NCBI GenBank assembly: GCA_947626655.1
Contig: CANQTA010000001.1
Coordinates: forward strand, 22,750 to 86,749
DNA: 64,000 nt
From: an uncultured Bacilli bacterium
Lineage (GTDB): Bacteria; Bacillota_I; Bacilli_A; RF39; UBA660
Direction of reading: 5' to 3'
Shown here: one piece after another, positions 4,769 to 61,362 of the stretch
Numbering within the stretch: the first letter of the stretch is position 1
Layout: each line of letters begins with the position of its first letter
Program-made: the position numbers and the translations under genes
The notes under the pieces: generated by a model
Database searches by the model: none
The model's input: only the letters and a program-made list of their open reading frames with translations
What the model was told of the DNA's origin: nothing

Positions 4769-6391
4769 ATGAATGATTATTCAGAAAATAATGAAGAAAA
4801 AATTAAGGAAGAAGAACATAAAGATGGAATGCGACATTTTTTGGTTTATGCAATTATTTTTGTAGCAATATTGATAATAGCTGCGATAACTGCTACCTTT
4901 GCTTATTTTACCGCTAATGTGGATATGACTAATAGTAGACCAACTAATATTGTTGGTACTACCGAATGCATTGATGTGCAATTTGAAGTTGAAAGTGATG
5001 CTGATGGTATTGAATTACCATTAAACTATCCGATTAGTGATGAATATGCCATGGAATATGGCCATGTAAAACCAGTTACTGTAAAAGTAATTAATAAATG
5101 TACTAATGAAAAACAAGAACCTATTGATTATACTTTGGCTATTACAACAGTTGGTAATAATCCTACTGAAACTGATAAGGGATCTATAACTGATAATAAA
5201 ATTAGATTTCTATTCGAAAAGGAAACAAAGAGTACTGGCGAACTAACTCAACCTGAAAATCCTGATTATTTGACCAGTTTAGATATTTTAGATTCAATGT
5301 CTACTAACTATACTTTAATTAAACAAAGTTTTTTAAATGAACATCGGATTAATTTAAGTGATTATAGTTGGTCAAATATATATAAGATAGATGCGGACAG
5401 TATTGCGACTAATTCAACTAATGTTTATAAAATCTATTTATGGATTGATTATTATGAAGGGGATGCTGATGCTTACACAAGTGGTACTCATACAAGCGAG
5501 GGGTATGATAATTCTACTAAGGGGCAAACATTTAAATCATTAATTAGCCTAGTAGTTAATAATAATGAAAATGCTACTGGTAATATAGATAATTATATTT
5601 GGACAAAGGCTATTACAGGTGGTGAACAAGTAATTGCTAAAAATCCTCAAGGTTTAGTTACTACCACAGATGAAAGTGATTTAGTACGAAGATTTGTGGG
5701 TACAGATGTTAATAATTATATTTGTATAAATAATGAAAAATGTGAAGAAAATGATGAATATATGTATCGAATTATTGGTTTGACTGAAGATGGCAAATTG
5801 AAATTAATCAAAGCAACTCCTTATAAAGAAAGTGCTTCTATTGCTTGGGATACTAGTTATACTACTGATAGACAATGGGGTGTAACTACATTAAATAGTG
5901 AATTAAATGCACCAAGCTTTTTAAGTAATCCTAGTTATATTCCAGAAATATTAAAATCAAAAATAATATTAAATAATTGGAAACAAGGTTTAGTTGTTAA
6001 TAACGAAGAAGAAGGGGCAGAAGAAATAACGGCAAGTGAAATAATTACAGGAGAAAATAGTGCCGTTGATACTATATCTCGTCATATTGGACTTATGTAT
6101 TTAAGCGATTATGCCTTAGCTACTTCTAGTAATGAAACTAGTTGTGTTAGTACTACTTGTGATAATTGGTTAAAAGATACAACAAATACATTATGGACAA
6201 TGACTCGTTATGGTAAAGAAAAAACTAATAATCGTTATAGTGCTTGGACAATAAAAACTGATGGAACTGTTACTCATACAAATGTTGATCAAACCAATGT
6301 AGTTTATCCAGTTTTCTATCTACAATCTAATGTAACTATAAGAGGTGGCGATGGTTCTATAACTGATCCAATGATTGTTATATTCCAATAA
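4769..6391 (+). CDS. surface/secreted protein, intact member of a paralogous family (540 aa); N-terminal signal anchor, Thr/Asn/Ser-rich
   Basis: RBS aagggtga. A cytoplasmic N-tail is followed by the TM helix FLVYAIIFVAILIIAAITATFAYF. The C-terminal half is clearly homologous to the 60086.. and 40841.. products (shared blocks YICI..C..NDEYMYRIIG, LKLIKAT, HIGLMYLSDY, CDNWLKD, VYPVFYL..GGDGS..P). Confidence 0.7.
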   Translation: MNDYSENNEEKIKEEEHKDGMRHFLVYAIIFVAILIIAAITATFAYFTANVDMTNSRPTNIVGTTECIDVQFEVESDADGIELPLNYPISDEYAMEYGHVKPVTVKVINKCTNEKQEPIDYTLAITTVGNNPTETDKGSITDNKIRFLFEKETKSTGELTQPENPDYLTSLDILDSMSTNYTLIKQSFLNEHRINLSDYSWSNIYKIDADSIATNSTNVYKIYLWIDYYEGDADAYTSGTHTSEGYDNSTKGQTFKSLISLVVNNNENATGNIDNYIWTKAITGGEQVIAKNPQGLVTTTDESDLVRRFVGTDVNNYICINNEKCEENDEYMYRIIGLTEDGKLKLIKATPYKESASIAWDTSYTTDRQWGVTTLNSELNAPSFLSNPSYIPEILKSKIILNNWKQGLVVNNEEEGAEEITASEIITGENSAVDTISRHIGLMYLSDYALATSSNETSCVSTTCDNWLKDTTNTLWTMTRYGKEKTNNRYSAWTIKTDGTVTHTNVDQTNVVYPVFYLQSNVTIRGGDGSITDPMIVIFQ

Positions 6392-14188: not shown

Positions 14189-14395
14189 TGAGTGCTAAGA
14201 CAATGAATTTTGTATTATCATTTATTATTTTGTTATTAATATTTCTTATATTTATACTAATAATAAAAGACGTTCACGGTCAACCATGATTACTTGTATA
14301 ATGCGTATGCGGTACGCCCAGTCTTCTATCTTCAATCTACAGCAACAATAACGGGAGGAGAAGGGAAATTAGGAAATCCATATATCATAAATTAG
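14189..14395 (+). pseudogene. decayed remnant of the surface-protein family: N-terminal signal anchor joined out of frame to a C-terminal ~45-aa module
   Basis: RBS gaaggggtgatgg then an ATG giving MSAKTMNFVLSFIILLLIFLIFILIIKDVHGQP*. One nucleotide out of frame, the read continues as KTFTVNHDYLYNAYAVRPVFYLQSTATITGGEGKLGNPYIIN*. This matches the family C-terminus VYPVFYLQSNVTIRGGDGSITDPMIV. The segment is richer in GC than its surroundings. Confidence 0.55.
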
Positions 14396-14686
14396 TAGAT
14401 ATAAATCGCCCAGGGCAGCAATAAAATAAGTTCGGTTCGAAGAGCACTAACCATTACCTTTGATGGTGTGGTGGGATGGGCCACAGAAAAATATTTGATA
14501 AAGTACAATCCCCAATATAAATATTATTTAGTATATACAATCATCAACGAAGACGTTAAAATAGCCATTCATTTCACGGAAATAGATAATTATTCATTTA
14601 TTTCTTTTTACTTGCAAACAAAAGTTTAAAAAACAAGTTGCATAAAAAAGTATTGTATGATAATATATACGTTAGGTGGTATTTCT

Positions 14687-19678: not shown

Positions 19679-19743
19679 CTAGTAAATTATAATATTGTGT
19701 TTAAAAAATTATGAATATAACCATAATATATTTAGGTGATTAT

Positions 19744-20391
19744 ATGGAATTAATGCATGTTATTTTTAGAACTACTTTTTTTTATTTTTTTGTGATGATA
19801 TGCTTTCGGTTAATGGGAAAAAGAGAAATTGGTCAACTAGGAGTTATTGATTTAATTGTTTCAATATTAATTGCTGAATTAATTGCTATTTCGATTGAAA
19901 ATATTGAAGATAGTATTTTCTTAACTATTATGCCAATTGCCCTTTTAGTAGTTTTAGAAATAGGGTTAGCATATTTTTCTATTAAATCGCGTAAATTTCG
20001 AACTTTTATTGATGGTAAACCATCTTTAATTATTTGTAATGGGAAAATAAATTATAACGAAATGGTCAAACAAAGATATAGTATGGATAACTTACTTTTA
20101 AGTTTAAGACAAAAAGAAATTAAAAATATTGATGATATTGAATATGCTTTTTTAGAACCTAATGGTAAATTATCAATCTTCAAATATAATTTTTTAAAGA
20201 TACCATCTGCCTATCCAATGCCACTTATTTTAGATGGAAGCGTTCAAAAAAAGGCTTTAAAATATGTGAAGAAAAATGAAACTTGGTTAAAAAATATCTT
20301 GAATAAAGAGGAATTAGAAATTAAAGATATCTTTTATTGTTTTTATAAAAAGAAAAAGCTCTATATCATAAAAAGAAATGATTTGAAATAA
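19744..20391 (+). CDS. DUF421/YetF-family membrane protein
   Basis: RLMGKREIGQLGVIDLIVSILIAELIA is the YetF N-terminal signature. The aggtga RBS supports a start at 19744. Confidence 0.55.
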   Translation: MELMHVIFRTTFFYFFVMICFRLMGKREIGQLGVIDLIVSILIAELIAISIENIEDSIFLTIMPIALLVVLEIGLAYFSIKSRKFRTFIDGKPSLIICNGKINYNEMVKQRYSMDNLLLSLRQKEIKNIDDIEYAFLEPNGKLSIFKYNFLKIPSAYPMPLILDGSVQKKALKYVKKNETWLKNILNKEELEIKDIFYCFYKKKKLYIIKRNDLK

Positions 20392-23793: not shown

Positions 23794-24675
23794 TTAATTA
23801 TAATGAGGATGGTTTTTATAATCATCTTTTATTTTTTCGTTAGAAATATGGGAATATATTTCCGTAGTTGATAAATTTTCATGGCCTAATAATTCTTGAA
23901 TAATTCTTAAATTAGCCCCATTATTTAATAAATGAGTGGCAAAAGAGTGTCTTATAATGTGTGGCGATATTTCTTTGTTGATATGACTTTCTTCACAGCG
24001 TTTAACTAAAATTTTAAAAAAACCTTGTCTAGTCATTTTTTGCCCATTGTAATTTAAAAATAAATAATCGGTATCATTTTTAACTAGAAAATTGCGATAT
24101 TCATTAATATATAAATCTAAATATTTAATAGCAATCGCTGAGATTGGAATAATTCTTTCTTTACTTCCCTTCCCCATTACTTTAATAATTTCATCCTCTT
24201 TATTATAACTAGCTAATCTAAGATTTAATAATTCAGATATTCGCATCCCAGTAGCATACAATAATTCAAGCATTGCTTTATTACGATATTCTAAAGGTTT
24301 TTTAGGATCAAAATCTAATAACTTAATTATTTCATCTTCTGTTAAAAATTTTGGTAGGCGTTTACCAATCTTTGGCATTTTTATATTTAAACAAGGATTT
24401 ATCTCAATTCTTTTTTTATCGACTAAAAAGTCATAAAACGATTTCAAAACGGTTAAATAATGTGCTTTGGTTTTACTACTATCTTGAAAACTATATAAGT
24501 AAGTTTGAATTTCATCTTCAGTCAAATCAGCAATATTTTGATCTGGAAAATATTTACATACTTCTATTAAATTATAGCGATAAGAAAGGTATGTATTATT
24601 AGCTAATTTTCGTTCATATTTTAAATAATCGAGATAATCGACAATTTCTTGACATAATGTTATTTCATTTTTCAT
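23794..24675 (-). CDS. tyrosine recombinase XerC/XerD family
   Basis: HIIRHSFATHLLNNGANLRIIQELLGHENLSTTEIYSHI catalytic box with an N-terminal SAM-like domain, 293 aa. It is chromosomal (between zupT and rarA) and not flanked by mobile-element genes. Confidence 0.8.
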   Translation of the reverse strand: MKNEITLCQEIVDYLDYLKYERKLANNTYLSYRYNLIEVCKYFPDQNIADLTEDEIQTYLYSFQDSSKTKAHYLTVLKSFYDFLVDKKRIEINPCLNIKMPKIGKRLPKFLTEDEIIKLLDFDPKKPLEYRNKAMLELLYATGMRISELLNLRLASYNKEDEIIKVMGKGSKERIIPISAIAIKYLDLYINEYRNFLVKNDTDYLFLNYNGQKMTRQGFFKILVKRCEESHINKEISPHIIRHSFATHLLNNGANLRIIQELLGHENLSTTEIYSHISNEKIKDDYKNHPHYN

Positions 24676-40733: not shown

Positions 40734-40840
40734 TATTTAAATTTTAAAAAACAGACTTAATTTCCGAATATGAATTTTAATATTCATTTTGTTGAAAACC
40801 CCATTTTCGGAGCTTGCCTCGCACAAACCGCGAGACAAGC

Positions 40841-42196
40841 TTAACTGCTTTGCAAATTTATTCTCCATGGACTTTCTTTACTTCCATCTCCACTTTTGAT
40901 TGTCGCTTCTGATTTGAGTACAAGGACCGGACGCACGCCATAGCTGTAGTAGTTCACGCTGACGCAGCTCACATAACCACTACTGCCGACAGTCAACGCA
41001 TAGTACGTAGCGTCGGCTTGGCGAGAAAGCGTCCATTCATTTACTCCATTATACAACCAATTCTCACTTCGATTTTCTTTTGTATTATAATAAAATAATT
41101 GAGTACTCCAATTACTTGGGGCTGATGCATAACCATACTCTGTAACATACATCAATCCTACTTTACTTGTTTGATATAATAAGGCATCTGTACATTGTAC
41201 ATAACTTTGTGAGTTATCTGTACATTGGCTTGATGAACTTGTTAATTTATTTGCTCCTAATTCATTATCATATGCTGCTTTCATACTACTTTGTCTTGTT
41301 ATATTATTATACGTATTTCCTCCAATATACCACTTTGTATTTTCTATTAAACTCGTATATGAGCTTAAACTTGTTAAATAATTTCCACTTTCATTGTTTA
41401 ATGTCTTATTCAATGTACTTGATATCCAGTTATTCCATGTAATAGAACTATTTCCACTCCAATAAAAACCTACTGCATTTGTTACATCTGCTCTTGGAGT
41501 ATAATCTGTTGCTGTTGTATATTGTGATAATATTTTTGATGTTAATCCTCCTCCTAATTCAGCTTCTGTTATATACTCACTTTTTATTATCTTCATTTCA
41601 TATTTTGTTGGCTCTCCTTCTTTTGGAAACCATCCTATTACTCGATATAATTTAGTTGTATCACATACTCCATCACCATTATTATTACCATCTAAACATA
41701 CATAATTATTTGGATTATTGCCTGCAAATCGATAACTATTATCTCCAGCTTCATTAGCACCATATGTTCCTTTTCCATCATGATATACTAAATATCCATC
41801 ACCAGTTGATAATTTAGTAGTATCATCTACATATTCTGGTAATACTTTTGATACTTTTAAATCAAAATACAAATAACAATAAGCTGTTATTCCTGTATCT
41901 ACAGTTGCTATATGATTTTCTTCATCATATGTTAAGATTTCTTCTTCTATTTTATTACCATCACCATCTATACATCCTGACATTGTTTTATTAAATGTAT
42001 ATCCTTCTTCTGGCCAAGTATTTCTTTCATCGGCTACATAGGTACTTGTTCCATCTTCTTGTTTTTGCTCTAAATACATAGCAAACATATTCTTATCTAC
42101 TATATTATTTAATTTTACATCATATAACTTATTATCTTTTTTAGCAAAAGACATATAGTTTATAATTATAATTGTTAATACCACTGGTATTAACAA
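40841..42196 (-). CDS. surface-protein family paralog 2 (451 aa from an internal TTG); native ATG at 42264 is out of frame because of a 41-bp tandem duplication, putative phase-OFF allele
   Basis: Homologous blocks with 4769.. and 60086.. (YVCLDG..C.TTKLYRVIG, GLMYVTEYGYA, YGVRPVLVLKSEATIKSGDGSKESPW). The track ORF starts at a TTG with no SD. An SD-preceded ATG at 42262-42264 reads MKFNKRYLLLLIPVVLTIKDIFYC* and then terminates. Confidence 0.6.
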   Translation of the reverse strand: MLIPVVLTIIIINYMSFAKKDNKLYDVKLNNIVDKNMFAMYLEQKQEDGTSTYVADERNTWPEEGYTFNKTMSGCIDGDGNKIEEEILTYDEENHIATVDTGITAYCYLYFDLKVSKVLPEYVDDTTKLSTGDGYLVYHDGKGTYGANEAGDNSYRFAGNNPNNYVCLDGNNNGDGVCDTTKLYRVIGWFPKEGEPTKYEMKIIKSEYITEAELGGGLTSKILSQYTTATDYTPRADVTNAVGFYWSGNSSITWNNWISSTLNKTLNNESGNYLTSLSSYTSLIENTKWYIGGNTYNNITRQSSMKAAYDNELGANKLTSSSSQCTDNSQSYVQCTDALLYQTSKVGLMYVTEYGYASAPSNWSTQLFYYNTKENRSENWLYNGVNEWTLSRQADATYYALTVGSSGYVSCVSVNYYSYGVRPVLVLKSEATIKSGDGSKESPWRINLQSS

Positions 42197-42256
42197 TAAA
42201 AGATATCTTTTATTGTTAATACCACTGGTATTAACAATAAAAGATATCTTTTATTG
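42171..42256. repeat. perfect 41-bp tandem duplication (2 copies + 4 bp) containing palindrome TTGTTAATACCACTGGTATTAACAA
   Basis: Unit attgttaataccactggtattaacaataaaagatatctttt occurs at 42171-42211 and again at 42212-42252. 41 is not divisible by 3. The unit encodes the LLLLIPVVLTI signal-anchor segment. Confidence 0.9.
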
Positions 42257-59940: not shown

Positions 59941-60085
59941 ATTATTATTATCTCATAAATTATAAAAAGTAGAAAGAGTATTTTTAATTTTTCATAATAA
60001 AAGAGGAAAGTATGTTTTTATACCTTCCTAGGATTAAGTTAATTAGTTTTAACGTGTTTTCTTTCACGATTGTTATTTTTCTTAT

Positions 60086-61162
60086 CTATAATGCTATTTT
60101 AAATGGATTACTTGTTGTTCCTTCTCCAGACACCTTTATATCGGCTGAAAGATAGAAGACTGGATAAGCTGCATTAGAATTATTTGTATCCCAGTGATCA
60201 AGACTGCCAGATGAAATTATTAACCATGCACCATATCCGTCATCACCACGAAACCGTGTTATTGTCCATTGATTATTAGATGAATCTTTTAACCAGTTAT
60301 TACATGATGATGTAGATTGACAATTTGTTGTTCCTGCATTATTTTCGGCATAATAATAATCACTTAAATACATTAAACCTATTTGCGTACTTGTATTATC
60401 TTGTGTAGTATTTTCTGCATCATATACTTCTTGCCCGGTATTTGTTTCGGTTGATACTGAACCTTGGTTCCAGCTCATATTTATTATCTTTGTTTTTAAT
60501 GTTTGAGGAATATATGATGCATTATTTAAAAATGATTCACTATTTAATTCTGTTCCTAAATCACCTTGACTCCATTGATAATCTAAGTAATAACTTGAAT
60601 TCCACATTGTTGATGTATTATAAGCAGTTGCCTTAATTAATTTTAAATTTCCTTCACTTGTTGTACCAATTATTCTATACAGATAATTTTCATTACATGT
60701 TCCTTCTCCTACATTGGGATCTATACATATATAATTATCTACTTCTGTTCCAACATAACGATATTGTAAACTTCCTGTATTTGTTTCTTGTAAGCCTTTT
60801 GATTTCTTATTGGCAACATAATTTCCACCTAATAATGTTTTTTCATCGAAATATAAATAGCAATATACCGTTTGACTACTTGTTACTGTTACTTTATTAT
60901 TATCATTTGATAATATTCCCTCTATTTTTTTGCCATTACTATCCATACAACCACTTTCATCTAAGTTTAATGTATATAGATTACTATCTGGAAACATGTC
61001 ACTTCCTGTGTATGGTTCATATTTATCTTCTTTTTTTACATACATAGCAAATGTATTATCTTTTCTTACTTGATTTTTAATCTTTACTTCATCTACTGCC
61101 ATTTTATTATTGCTCTTATCTGGTATAAGTATTATTATTGTTGATACTAATAGTATCAACAA
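60086..61162 (-). CDS. surface-protein family paralog 3 (358 aa from an internal TTG); native ATG at 61230 is out of frame because of a 41-bp tandem duplication, putative phase-OFF allele
   Basis: Strong homology to 4769.. (YICIDP..C.ENYLYRIIG, NLKLIKATAY, QIGLMYLSDY, CNNWLKDS, AYPVFYL..GEGTTSNPFKI). An SD-preceded ATG at 61228-61230 reads MKKQLKYFSLLILLVSTN* and then terminates. Confidence 0.6.
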   Translation of the reverse strand: MLILLVSTIIILIPDKSNNKMAVDEVKIKNQVRKDNTFAMYVKKEDKYEPYTGSDMFPDSNLYTLNLDESGCMDSNGKKIEGILSNDNNKVTVTSSQTVYCYLYFDEKTLLGGNYVANKKSKGLQETNTGSLQYRYVGTEVDNYICIDPNVGEGTCNENYLYRIIGTTSEGNLKLIKATAYNTSTMWNSSYYLDYQWSQGDLGTELNSESFLNNASYIPQTLKTKIINMSWNQGSVSTETNTGQEVYDAENTTQDNTSTQIGLMYLSDYYYAENNAGTTNCQSTSSCNNWLKDSSNNQWTITRFRGDDGYGAWLIISSGSLDHWDTNNSNAAYPVFYLSADIKVSGEGTTSNPFKIAL

Positions 61163-61220
61163 ACTAAAATATTTTAGTTTGTTGATACTAATAGTATCAA
61201 CAAACTAAAATATTTTAGTT
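61138..61220. repeat. perfect 41-bp tandem duplication (2 copies + 1 bp) containing palindrome TTGATACTAATAGTATCAA
   Basis: Unit ttgttgatactaatagtatcaacaaactaaaatattttag occurs at 61138-61178 and again at 61179-61219. It encodes the LLILLVSTI signal-anchor segment. The unit length (41 bp) matches the 42171 locus. Confidence 0.9.
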
Positions 61221-61362
61221 GTTTTTTCATTATTAACCTCTTTCTTTATTCTCATTATATACTGCATATCTTGTTTAAATTATATCTATTATTTTTTAAT
61301 AAGTCAATTTGTTTGTTATATGTTTTTATTCACTTTACAACAAAAAACTGCTCATCACAGTT

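Follow-up and report, generated by a model that had tools for sequence, protein, structure and literature searches.

A 64,000-nucleotide stretch of DNA from an uncultured gut Bacilli bacterium, here called the window, contains a surface-protein gene with an exact 41-bp tandem duplication directly behind its start codon. The duplication shifts the reading frame into an early stop, although the remainder of the gene is open. This locus (L1) raises the question of whether the gene is dead or merely switched off, and by which route a unit of exactly 41 bp could be gained and lost.

Array, reading frame and copy number

Tandem Repeats Finder describes the L1 region 61138-61220 with a period of 41, 2.0 copies, 100% matches and no indels, confirming the exact duplication reported in the initial annotation. 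The same annotation predicted that the ATG at 61230 leads to a short product and a stop, which is found, and that deletion of one copy restores the frame. With one unit removed, an open frame of 367 aa results, which begins with MKKQLKYFSLLILLVSTIIILIPDKSNNKMAVDE... and is signal-anchored. The elements of L1 are the following:

61279..61307, minus strand: promoter-like site, TTGACT, 17-nt spacer, TATAAT, 11/12 matches
61237..61247, minus strand: Shine-Dalgarno-like AAAGAAAGAGG 5' of the ATG, read from the sequence
61174..61230, minus strand: truncated frame from the true ATG (61230-61228) in the 2-copy state, MKKQLKYFSLLILLVSTN, with TAA at 61176-61174
61139..61220, minus strand: array in the OFF state, two exact copies of the 41-bp unit U1 (AACTAAAATATTTTAGTTTGTTGATACTATTAGTATCAACA)
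61220..61180, minus (gene) strand: copy 1 of the unit
61179..61139, minus (gene) strand: copy 2 of the unit
60086..61162, minus strand: gene body, 358 codons open, reached from the ATG only with a single unit
60004..60029, minus strand: 3' terminator-like hairpin and T-run

Duplicated arrays are also present at a second locus of the window (L2) and at two loci, L002a and L002b, on another contig (L002), where unit U1 occurs twice at each. These four sequenced loci contain exactly two units with 100% identity between copies, and the promoter-like site, the Shine-Dalgarno sequence and the ATG are conserved at all of them. All 2-copy members are annotated as N-terminally truncated or with a spurious N-terminus. 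The other family features in the window are:

42171..42256, minus strand: L2 array, two exact copies of the 41-bp unit U2 (2.1 copies, Tandem Repeats Finder), with the ATG at 42264-42262
40841..42196, minus strand: L2 gene body, 451 codons open, giving a 460-aa protein with one unit
40812..40840, minus strand: GC-rich hairpin directly 3' of the L2 stop codon, GCTTGTCTCGC-GGTTTGT-GCGAGGCAAGC
4769..6391, plus strand: third family member, with a different N-terminus and with neither palindromes nor repeat, so without a switch
about 14190-14420: degraded family remnant

Reduced to one unit, the four OFF loci L1, L2, L002a and L002b give ORFs of 367, 460, 559 and 373 aa, respectively. With two units, the frame of the three U1 loci is closed by a stop after 18 codons and that of L2 by a stop after 24; zero, three and four units, modelled for L1 and L2, are all out of frame or contain stops. 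A single unit would allow reading from the ATG through the membrane anchor into the body (gene ON); two units would shift the frame to the early stop (gene OFF), and zero, three or four units would also leave the gene OFF. The OFF bodies are uninterrupted, with 358-549 codons open in the shifted frame in a genome of about 28% GC. Downstream decay of the 2-copy genes, named at the outset as the sign of dead rather than switchable genes, was looked for, and all sequenced OFF bodies proved to be open.

Both states are found in one strain background. Over 10,112 bases, contig L108 (from sample ERZ27249265) is identical to L002 (from sample ERZ27248994) except that one 41-bp unit is missing at L002a, and the intact 1-copy protein of 559 aa is present in a public collection as P0122. 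L002b, 2.2 kb away and with the identical unit, is still 2-copy on L108. The organism is represented by three ENA assemblies and one NCBI record; the comparison is at assembly level, and L002a is the one locus for which both states are known, each from a different sample. Contig L003 begins with a break that is accounted for by the final 55-mer common to L1 and L002a/b and is therefore uninformative on mixed alleles. In two samples, a further paralog, L5 (P0124), has a single unit and its full length, and its two palindromes are perfect. The 641-aa product P0125, starting with MFVNTNSINKQKYFCLLILLVLT, appears at the protein level to be the main-frame read-through of a third 2-copy array.

Most family loci are OFF and none carries three copies. 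The properties of a contingency locus are found as follows: copy number sets the frame of the body at the four sequenced loci, copy number differs in otherwise identical DNA at L002a, and the OFF alleles are otherwise intact. Together, the 1- and 2-copy alleles, the ON paralog L5 and the undecayed OFF genes support the original suggestion of a palindrome-driven 41-bp duplication leading to frameshift phase variation. A search for relatives with one, two or three copies, also suggested there, succeeded in part: 1- and 2-copy paralogs exist in the same genome, none is 3-copy, and the 78 family loci from other MAGs (rabbit, goat and human gut) show neither a 5'-end tandem duplication nor a palindrome with arms of at least 8 nt at the equivalent position. 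This indicates that the architecture is lineage-specific and not traceable further back.

Palindromes and unit geometry

Codons 4-18 of each switch gene consist of two adjacent perfect palindromes, P2 followed by P1. A palindrome at L1 was already recognized in the initial annotation, and its existence is verified; it is longer than described there (12-1-12), and the second palindrome, P2, had gone unmentioned. At L1, the palindromes are arranged as follows:

61203..61220: P2 of copy 1, AACTAAAAT and ATTTTAGTT on either side of the centre, which lies 19.5 nt after the A of the ATG
61179..61203: P1 of copy 1, TTGTTGATACTA-T-TAGTATCAACAA, 12-1-12, with the centre 40 nt after the A of the ATG
61151..61190: 20+20 palindrome enclosing the second P2, centred at 61170/61171
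61138..61162: P1 of copy 2, 12-1-12

The palindromes of L2 (P2, AATAAAAGAT and ATCTTTTATT on either side of the centre; P1, ATTGTTAATACCA-G-TGGTATTAACAAT) have the same distances from the ATG as those of L1, so that U1 and U2 share centres at 19.5 and 40 nt. A spacing of 20.5 nt between mirror centres necessarily results in a period of 41. The shared unit length, which had been read as an argument for a programmed mechanism, is accordingly a geometric consequence of the conserved palindrome centres and no independent coincidence. The 2-copy state also forms one perfect palindrome as a whole, 29-1-29 in L1 and 31-1-31 in L2. Its region shows a DNA folding energy of -33.4 kcal/mol (z = -12.9), and the 2-copy mRNA would gain a hairpin of 27-31 bp followed by a U-run.

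The palindromes at L1 and L2 are not due to chance. The four occurrences of the pattern GTTRATACYANTRGTATYAAC in the window are confined to these loci, compared to 0.07 occurrences expected, and none of 100 shuffles of the window reached four. Outside L1 and L2, the window contains five perfect palindromes with arms of at least 9 nt, which is the background level of Markov simulations. A scan for the P1 pattern in JGI metagenome contigs and IMG/VR gave 26 single matches, all of them in unrelated contexts and lacking both a second palindrome and a repeat. Rfam shows no RNA family at L1 or L2, its sole matches being three tRNAs elsewhere.

Contrary to the earlier statement that the L1 and L2 repeat units share no sequence identity, U1 and U2 are homologous and align without gaps in the same codon register, with 28 of 41 positions identical. 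Twelve of the 13 differing positions form six compensatory pairs, and none of 2,000,000 random substitution sets kept both palindromes. L5 contributes a seventh pair, with both palindromes remaining perfect, and the protein sequence of P0125 suggests two more. The palindrome architecture is present in at least five sequenced paralogs and probably in seven. Instead of serving a switch, the palindromes could be under selection for other roles, for instance as the site of a recombinase, as an operator or as a hairpin in the mRNA.

Proposed gain and loss of the unit

The arrangement is probably a cis-encoded ON/OFF contingency switch: 41 bp would be added by template switching at the palindromes (OFF) and removed by slippage or hairpin processing (ON). 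We infer the template-switch route, and likewise the reversibility, rates and phenotype of the switch. For the addition, a nascent strand that has passed P1 during replication would switch template via the P1 arms, by fold-back or strand switch, copy back through P2, and rejoin the original template via the P2 arms. The 20.5-nt segment that separates the centres would thereby be present three times, its middle copy in inverted orientation; as palindromes form both ends, the product would look like a perfect tandem duplication of 41 bp. The 2-copy array can be written as S, the reverse complement of S, and S (S = 20.5 nt), which by symmetry equals a tandem duplication. For the removal, slippage between the direct copies or processing of the long hairpin would delete exactly 41 bp. 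Repeated cycles of addition and removal would copy mutations from one palindrome arm to the other, which would explain the compensatory changes.

Plain slippage appears poorly served at these loci, since the microhomology available as a direct repeat at the duplication ends is just 1-4 nt (array lengths of 83-86), compared to the 9-13 nt offered by the palindrome arms. Predominantly OFF loci without three copies are also not obviously predicted by a purely neutral slippage walk. The sole base that discriminates between the routes is the centre of P1. It is identical between copies at all four sequenced 2-copy loci, which, as far as these bases tell, fits plain duplication or intrastrand fold-back and not strand switch. 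The protein sequence of P0125 implies an A in copy 1 and a T or C in copy 2, a difference that an inverted middle segment would produce.

As an alternative, the palindromes might act as a mutational hotspot without switch function, the duplication being a one-way loss by which genes become pseudogenes, with 1-copy L002a as the ancestral state. This is consistent with the OFF state of most loci, with the fact that no reversion event has been directly seen, and with the remnant at about 14190-14420, which indicates that members of this family can die. It is nevertheless unlikely, as all four sequenced OFF bodies are open at about 28% GC (367-559 aa after removal of one unit), as is the 641-aa frame of P0125, and promoter, Shine-Dalgarno sequence and ATG are all intact. 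Merely harmful palindromes should erode, yet they are perfect through at least seven compensatory pairs, and the 1- and 2-copy alleles show no other difference in 10 kb.

A dedicated site-specific recombinase or structure-specific nuclease, for which the palindromes would be enzyme sites and not polymerase templates, is quite improbable. P1 can be read as inverted arms of 9-10 bp with a 7-bp spacer, like the core site of a tyrosine recombinase, and the window contains two genes of the integrase/Xer type, at 738-1703 (Phage_integrase, Pfam) and at 23794-24675 (Xer-like, by eye only). Against this, no recombinase gene adjoins any of the loci, which are surrounded by housekeeping genes, and no inversion is seen, so that they lack the marks of a recombinase or invertase switch. 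P1 and P2 are unrelated in sequence, recombination between like sites cannot make the first duplication, and two sites separated by 41 bp leave too little room for intramolecular synapsis.

That the assembler or library chemistry adds or drops a 41-bp unit at the palindromes is very improbable, although all records are low-coverage (7-9x) SPAdes metagenome assemblies and palindromes are known trouble spots. The 2-copy path requires copy-junction k-mers that are absent from a 1-copy genome, and the 1-copy path at L002a requires unique 55-mers across flank, unit and flank. Owing to the odd centre base of P1, k-mers of at least 21 are never self-complementary, and P2 falls short of 21 nt. Two copies are seen at four loci and in three assemblies, and 1- and 2-copy arrays of the identical unit coexist on L108, 2.2 kb apart. 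On k-mer logic and reproducibility, a De Bruijn graph artefact was rejected.

It is scarcely credible that the 2-copy state is the working form, through recoding (a 41-nt ribosome hop, a frameshift or reinitiation at the copy-2 TTG) or an attenuation leader peptide: the L1 stop does lie within a hairpin stem as in T4 gene 60, the L2 stop overlaps a TTG (TTGTTAA) and a T-run follows the 2-copy hairpin, but the pre-stop codons AAC (L1) and TGT (L2) are not matched by any landing codon in the required frame, the stop position differs between U1 and U2, no X XXY YYZ slippery site is present, the product of a TTG start has no charged N-region and a hydrophobic stretch of only 12-16 residues, and intact 1-copy alleles exist. 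Ribosome hopping, -1 frameshifting and reinitiation were rejected on the missing take-off/landing match, the missing slippery heptamer and the differing stop positions.

Known switches and the surface family

The established routes to phase variation are short repeats, invertases, methylation and gene conversion. Neisseria opa genes carry many copies of the 5-nt unit CTCTT in the leader-peptide codons, which vary through slipped-strand mispairing. As in opa, a repeat in the signal sequence sets the reading frame of a surface family whose paralogs switch independently. In contrast to opa, the unit described here has 41 nt, occurs in one or two copies, shows dyad symmetry and is ON only as a single copy; a 41-nt array of one to two copies falls outside the simple sequence repeats, with their units of 1-9 nt in multi-copy tracts. 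The Mycoplasma families vsa, vsp and vpma use site-specific inversion and recombination between 5' ends. Like the present family, they are multigene surface families whose 5' cassettes are conserved and of which few members are ON simultaneously, but they depend on a recombinase and one or a few expression sites, whereas the genes described here possess individual promoters and switches and show no inversion. PARCEL elements are likewise dyad-symmetric tandem coding repeats of membrane-targeted proteins in low-GC monoderm bacteria; their units of 25 residues (75 nt, in frame) form long arrays and protein domains, not a frame switch in the signal anchor.

A close parallel in outcome is the spontaneous tandem-duplication phase variation of the pneumococcal capsule genes cap3A, cap8E and tts (Waite et al. 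2001 and 2003, cited in PMC4243769), in which a perfect tandem duplication within the ORF is OFF, precise loss of one copy is ON and no dedicated enzyme is needed. In the Bacilli family, unlike in pneumococcus, the duplication takes its position and length from two conserved palindromes and affects the signal-anchor region in a multigene family. Duplication lengths and positions reportedly vary between pneumococcal variants; here, the duplication covers the same codons and measures 41 bp at each of the four sequenced 2-copy loci and at one protein-inferred locus. Tandem-duplication switching is known from the capsule, where it is untargeted, and here the sequence appears to dictate the site and length of the duplication.

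Small inverted triplications arise from replication errors, and in Escherichia coli polymerase slippage across a hairpin excises them precisely, in a manner dependent on SbcCD and Rep (PMC13334657). The proposed route resembles these SIT/ODIRA events, in which the template is switched twice at inverted repeats and the resulting DUP-INV-DUP structure is precisely removed by hairpin slippage (PMC13334657, PMC10766183). SIT/ODIRA events are sporadic and involve segments of about 150 bp in yeast, cancer genomes and plasmids, in contrast to the 20.5 nt conserved here across a gene family (PMC13334657, PMC10766183). Another difference is that both junctions here are perfect palindromes, with a product indistinguishable from a tandem duplication. 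The promoter tandem repeats of Mycobacterium tuberculosis (54-57 bp) vary in copy number within isogenic populations at 1e-2 to 1e-3 per chromosome; they share units of tens of base pairs and an effect of copy number on expression, but act in the promoter as a graded dial, with neither frameshift nor palindromes (PMC12817950).

Part of the family carries a second source of variation. At the 3' end of L2, a variable region (40927..41025, minus strand) corresponds to the template repeat on contig L109 (5503-5601), and 20 of 20 mismatches over the 99 nt lie at template adenines. For L5, this holds for 21 of 21 mismatches over 99 nt; the hairpin sequence directly behind the L2 stop codon is also found 3' of the L5 variable region. 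L1, L002a, L002b and the gene at 4769 show no match to this template repeat. By their adenine-only mismatches, L2 and L5, and not L1, are classed as targets of a diversity-generating retroelement (DGR), and one subfamily, L2 included, is to judge from this pattern also diversified by such an element. No template repeat was found within the window, where a weak match at 14306-14393 was rejected as a remnant of a family gene, and no reverse-transcriptase-like [YF]xDD ORF was found in the window, L002 or L109.

The protein of locus L002b (P0006) matches Pfam PF19789 (DUF6273) with 31.6 bits against a gathering cutoff of 23.5, and L1, L2 and P0122 have no Pfam match. An AlphaFold2 model of L1 (pLDDT of 86) gives no significant Foldseek match in the PDB; the weak matches are mostly C-type lectins.

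A wider reading, put forward tentatively, combines these observations. Paired palindromes in the signal-anchor codons may form a self-templating, enzyme-free switch that programs a reversible 41-bp inverted triplication, maintains itself by concerted evolution and gates a lectin-like surface family, of which some members are DGR-hypermutated. Already now, the miscalled N-termini of 2-copy family members are a warning for annotation. If the switch is confirmed, paired palindromes would be usable as a compact, enzyme-free, site-specific frameshift switch, and genomes could be searched for its signature: two 5' palindrome centres a distance d apart, with an exact 2d duplication in some alleles. 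Confirmation would further establish, for uncultured gut Bacilli, a connection between ON/OFF control and hypervariation by a DGR, with relevance to the evasion of phages and of the immune system in the gut. If the self-templating reading is true, the cell would vary both the display of each receptor and its binding target.

Tandem arrays and paired palindromes at L1 and L2

The paralogous genes L1 (body 60086..61162) and L2 (body 40841..42196), both on the minus strand of the window, carry the following arrays:

Window 61138-61220, minus strand: L1 array, period 41 bp, 2.0 copies, 100% identity, 0 indels
Window 42171-42256, minus strand: L2 array, period 41 bp, 2.1 copies

Tandem Repeats Finder and reading of the frames confirm the initial annotation on three points: where the arrays lie, that the copies are exact, and that deletion of one unit restores the frame. 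An ATG lies just before each array, with a purine-rich ribosome-binding site upstream. In the two-copy state, the ATG frame of L1 reads MKKQLKYFSLLILLVSTN and then stops, and removal of one unit leaves an open frame of 367 amino acids; the L2 frame comprises 24 codons as sequenced and 460 amino acids with one unit deleted. One unit places the body in frame with the ATG (ON), and two units turn the gene OFF through a frameshift.

The palindrome first described in the unit is present and perfect but is not single, as each 41-bp unit is built from two perfect palindromes, P1 and P2. P2 is centered at nucleotide 19.5 from the A of the ATG in both genes (AACTAAAAT|ATTTTAGTT in L1 and AATAAAAGAT|ATCTTTTATT in L2), and P1 is centered at nucleotide 40 (TTGTTGATACTA-T-TAGTATCAACAA in L1 and ATTGTTAATACCA-G-TGGTATTAACAAT in L2). 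With mirror centers spaced by 20.5 nt, a repeat period of 41 nt is unavoidable. The equal unit length is therefore not a second coincidence but follows from palindromes at homologous positions. The same geometry turns the two-copy array into a single extended palindrome without mismatches, 31-1-31 for L2 and 29-1-29 for L1, which can also be written as S, the reverse complement of S, and S, where S is the 20.5 nt between the centers. The P1 consensus occurs four times in the window, only at L1 and L2, against 0.07 expected occurrences, and palindromes elsewhere in the window are present in background number. The palindrome sites at L1 and L2 are far from chance.

The alignment of L1 with L2 is gap-free from the promoter to the end of the unit. 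Their unit types, U1 and U2, are thus homologous, contrary to the earlier statement that they share no identity. They differ at 13 positions, 12 of which form six compensatory pairs keeping P1 and P2 perfect; the 13th is the unpaired central base of P1. When 13 substitutions were drawn at random 2,000,000 times, no set left both palindromes intact. The palindromes have been maintained through the divergence of U1 and U2.

Folded as DNA, the two-copy state reaches -33.4 kcal/mol (z = -12.9), compared to -10.8 kcal/mol for a single copy. The two-copy mRNA gains a 27-bp hairpin followed by a U-run flagged by the terminator scan (-44.8 versus -15 kcal/mol as RNA). At window positions 61168-61214, a stem of at least 20 bp with a T-run, flagged on both strands, occurs in the two-copy state only, so that the OFF state may also shorten transcription. 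An unrelated membrane-protein gene (19711-20391) shares an exact 19-nt stretch at its 3' end with P2 of the L2 unit (AAAGATATCTTTTATTGTT; window positions 20323-20341 versus the 42200-42218 / 42241-42256 region). Both genes read this stretch in one frame (IKDIFYC), and the estimated probability of such a match by chance is roughly 1e-3 to 1e-2.

Further family members and their allelic states

A search with the repaired L1 protein leads to a second contig of the same sample with equal coverage, L002. It holds two more paralogs, L002a and L002b, each with the L1-type unit exactly twice and yielding 559 and 373 amino acids, respectively, after deletion of one unit. The 82-bp array and the next 18 nt are 100% identical across the three U1 loci, with flanks only ∼80% identical. 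L002b is a mosaic of an L1-type cassette and an L2-type next segment. Contig L003, from a third sample, differs from L002 only at positions 74 and 2354 (L002 positions 5512 and 7792). Both differences replace T by C, at corresponding sites of the two neighboring paralogs, which indicates gene conversion between 5' cassettes.

The repaired L2 protein retrieves three more relatives. P0124 (locus L5, identical in two samples) is full length with 461 amino acids, and its gene contains a single unit in which P1 and P2 are both perfect, with one additional compensatory pair relative to the L2 unit. P0125 (641 amino acids, on four contigs) has the N-terminus MFVNTNSINKQKYFCLLILLVLT, which at the protein level would correspond to the body frame read back through a two-copy array of a third unit type. 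Relative to U1, the protein has Leu-to-Gln and Ser-to-Cys changes, which would represent the two halves of another compensatory pair. P0123 (438 amino acids, NCBI record only) starts at an internal Met and is probably another OFF member, of this genome or a close relative.

The hypothetical one-copy proteins of L1, L2, L002a, and L002b were looked up by exact sequence in the public protein collection, which holds that of L002a (P0122) and none for L1, L2, or L002b. The P0122 contig, L108 (sample ERZ27249265, 10,112 bp), matches L002 (sample ERZ27248994, 10,153 bp) at every base apart from one 41-bp unit missing at L002a; 2.2 kb away on L108, the array of L002b retains both copies. This indicates one strain background with L002a ON in one sample and OFF in the other.

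State of each family member
L1: OFF
L2: OFF
L002b: OFF
L5: ON
L002a: OFF or ON by sample, the only locus known in both states
P0125: OFF, as deduced from the protein
P0123: probably OFF, as deduced from the protein

One-way gene loss at a mutational hotspot is an unlikely explanation, given the intact gene bodies and signals, the conserved palindromes, and the clean ON/OFF allele pair. A dedicated recombinase or nuclease is considerably less probable, since there is no associated gene, the sites are merely 41 bp apart, and the first duplication cannot be made in this way. An assembly artefact, in which the graph adds or drops a unit, is very improbable. All records, from one organism in three assemblies plus one NCBI record, are low-coverage SPAdes assemblies, and the graph was tested for an invented or dropped unit. 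The last 55-mer common to L1 and L002a/b is where L003 starts; this accounts for the contig break and reveals an assembly k of 55. Owing to the odd central base, no k-mer of ≥21 in P1 equals its own reverse complement, and P2 is shorter than 21 nt. Two-copy junction k-mers are missing from a one-copy genome, the one-copy path requires its own 55-mers across flank, unit, and flank, and the two-copy state is repeated at four loci and in three assemblies. Recoding or attenuation with two copies as the working state is the least credible reading, as no recoding signals are common to both unit types and ON alleles exist.

The third family gene of the window, at 4769-6391, has a longer, charged N-terminus different from the others, with no palindromes, repeat, or switch, and would be constitutively in frame. 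An intergenic stretch at ∼14190-14420 (plus strand) consists of a short open reading frame whose N-terminus is hydrophobic (MSAKTMNFVLSFIILLLIFLIFILIIKDVHGQP*) and, after it, the C-terminal end of the family (YAVRPVFYLQSTATITGGEGKLGNPYIIN*); it has the appearance of a dead paralog that lost its internal part. Three tRNA genes (1723-1796, 1811-1884, and 2701-2773) lie next to a gene for a phage-type integrase (738-1703), and this region (738-2773) may mark the border of an integrated element.

Related genomes were scanned with one genome per species, giving 78 family loci, mostly from rabbit, goat, and human gut "Bacilli" metagenome-assembled genomes (MAGs). None of the 78 shows a 5'-end tandem duplication or a palindrome with arms of ≥8 nt at the equivalent position. 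Searches of JGI metagenomes and IMG/VR with the P1 pattern return chance hits only. So far, the device has been seen in this lineage only. Some scanned genomes contain dozens of paralogs with conserved 5' cassettes. In related MAGs of this kind from rabbit gut (L023, L029, L035, L036, L040, L042, L050, L055-L057, L065, and L068), many contigs stop 40 to 110 nt upstream of a family gene, at the highly conserved cassette (MRIINKKYLLIILLVG...), a repeat that breaks the assembly. These cassettes contain neither palindromes nor duplications.

Encoded proteins and variable regions

The AlphaFold2 model of repaired L1 (pLDDT 86) shows a globular body rich in beta structure, preceded by an N-terminal helix (residues 2 to 21) and a disordered linker. 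Foldseek against the PDB gives no significant match, the weak ones being mostly C-type lectins. L002b matches DUF6273, described as a C-type-lectin-like domain in targets of diversity-generating retroelements (DGRs) (PMC10743442). The L2 subfamily is a DGR target, with the following template repeat (TR) and variable regions (VRs):

L109 5503-5601: TR, 99 nt, downstream of L5
L109 5202-5300: VR of L5
Window 41025..40927, minus strand: VR of L2 at the 3' end of the gene, GC-rich and adenine-poor (∼53% GC versus ∼28% for the genome)
Window 40812-40840: hairpin near the L2 VR

All mismatches between VR and TR fall at template adenines (21/21 in L5 and 20/20 in L2). L1 and the other U1 genes contain no TR match, and no reverse transcriptase was found in the window, L002, or L109.

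Proposed duplication mechanism and known systems

In the most likely reading, the arms of the palindromes (9 to 13 nt) would direct two template switches that produce the duplication. Here, the nascent strand would copy P1, pair back via the P1 arms, and recopy P2, followed by re-pairing with the original template via P2 and synthesis of a second P1 copy, with a net gain of 41 nt. Slippage alone would explain this step poorly, as direct microhomology at the ends amounts to only 1 to 4 nt (array lengths of 83 to 86). Loss of a unit would be expected from slippage between the two adjacent 41-bp direct repeats, which also form a hairpin. In E. coli plasmids, inverted triplications are removed precisely by slippage, requiring SbcCD and Rep (PMC13334657). 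Cycles of gain and loss by this route would transfer a mutation from arm to arm; no selection on the individual steps would then be needed to explain the compensatory pattern. The central bases of P1 are identical between copies in four sequenced arrays, which fits an intrastrand fold-back or slippage; the differing centers of P0125, as deduced from its protein, would fit a strand switch.

Repeats of the Opa type also lie in signal-peptide codons, but they are slipped-strand tracts with a 5-nt unit. Pneumococcal capsule duplications are reportedly untargeted in position and length, whereas here both appear to be set by the paired palindromes. These tandem duplications, which arise spontaneously in cap3A, cap8E, and tts and underlie capsule phase variation (Waite 2001, 2003, via PMC4243769), are the closest described case and follow the same logic. 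Promoter repeats of M. tuberculosis have units of similar size (54 to 57 bp) and variable copy number, changing at 1e-2 to 1e-3 per chromosome (PMC12817950). The dyad-symmetric repeats known as PARCELs have 75-nt units that stay in frame, and they are not switches (PMC2996958). The literature search returned no account of a paired-palindrome unit that fixes both position and length of a frameshifting duplication in a whole gene family. Switching by tandem duplication is itself known; what appears new relative to the literature found, judging from the sequences, is that paired palindromes would dictate where a frameshifting duplication arises and how long it is, throughout a family.
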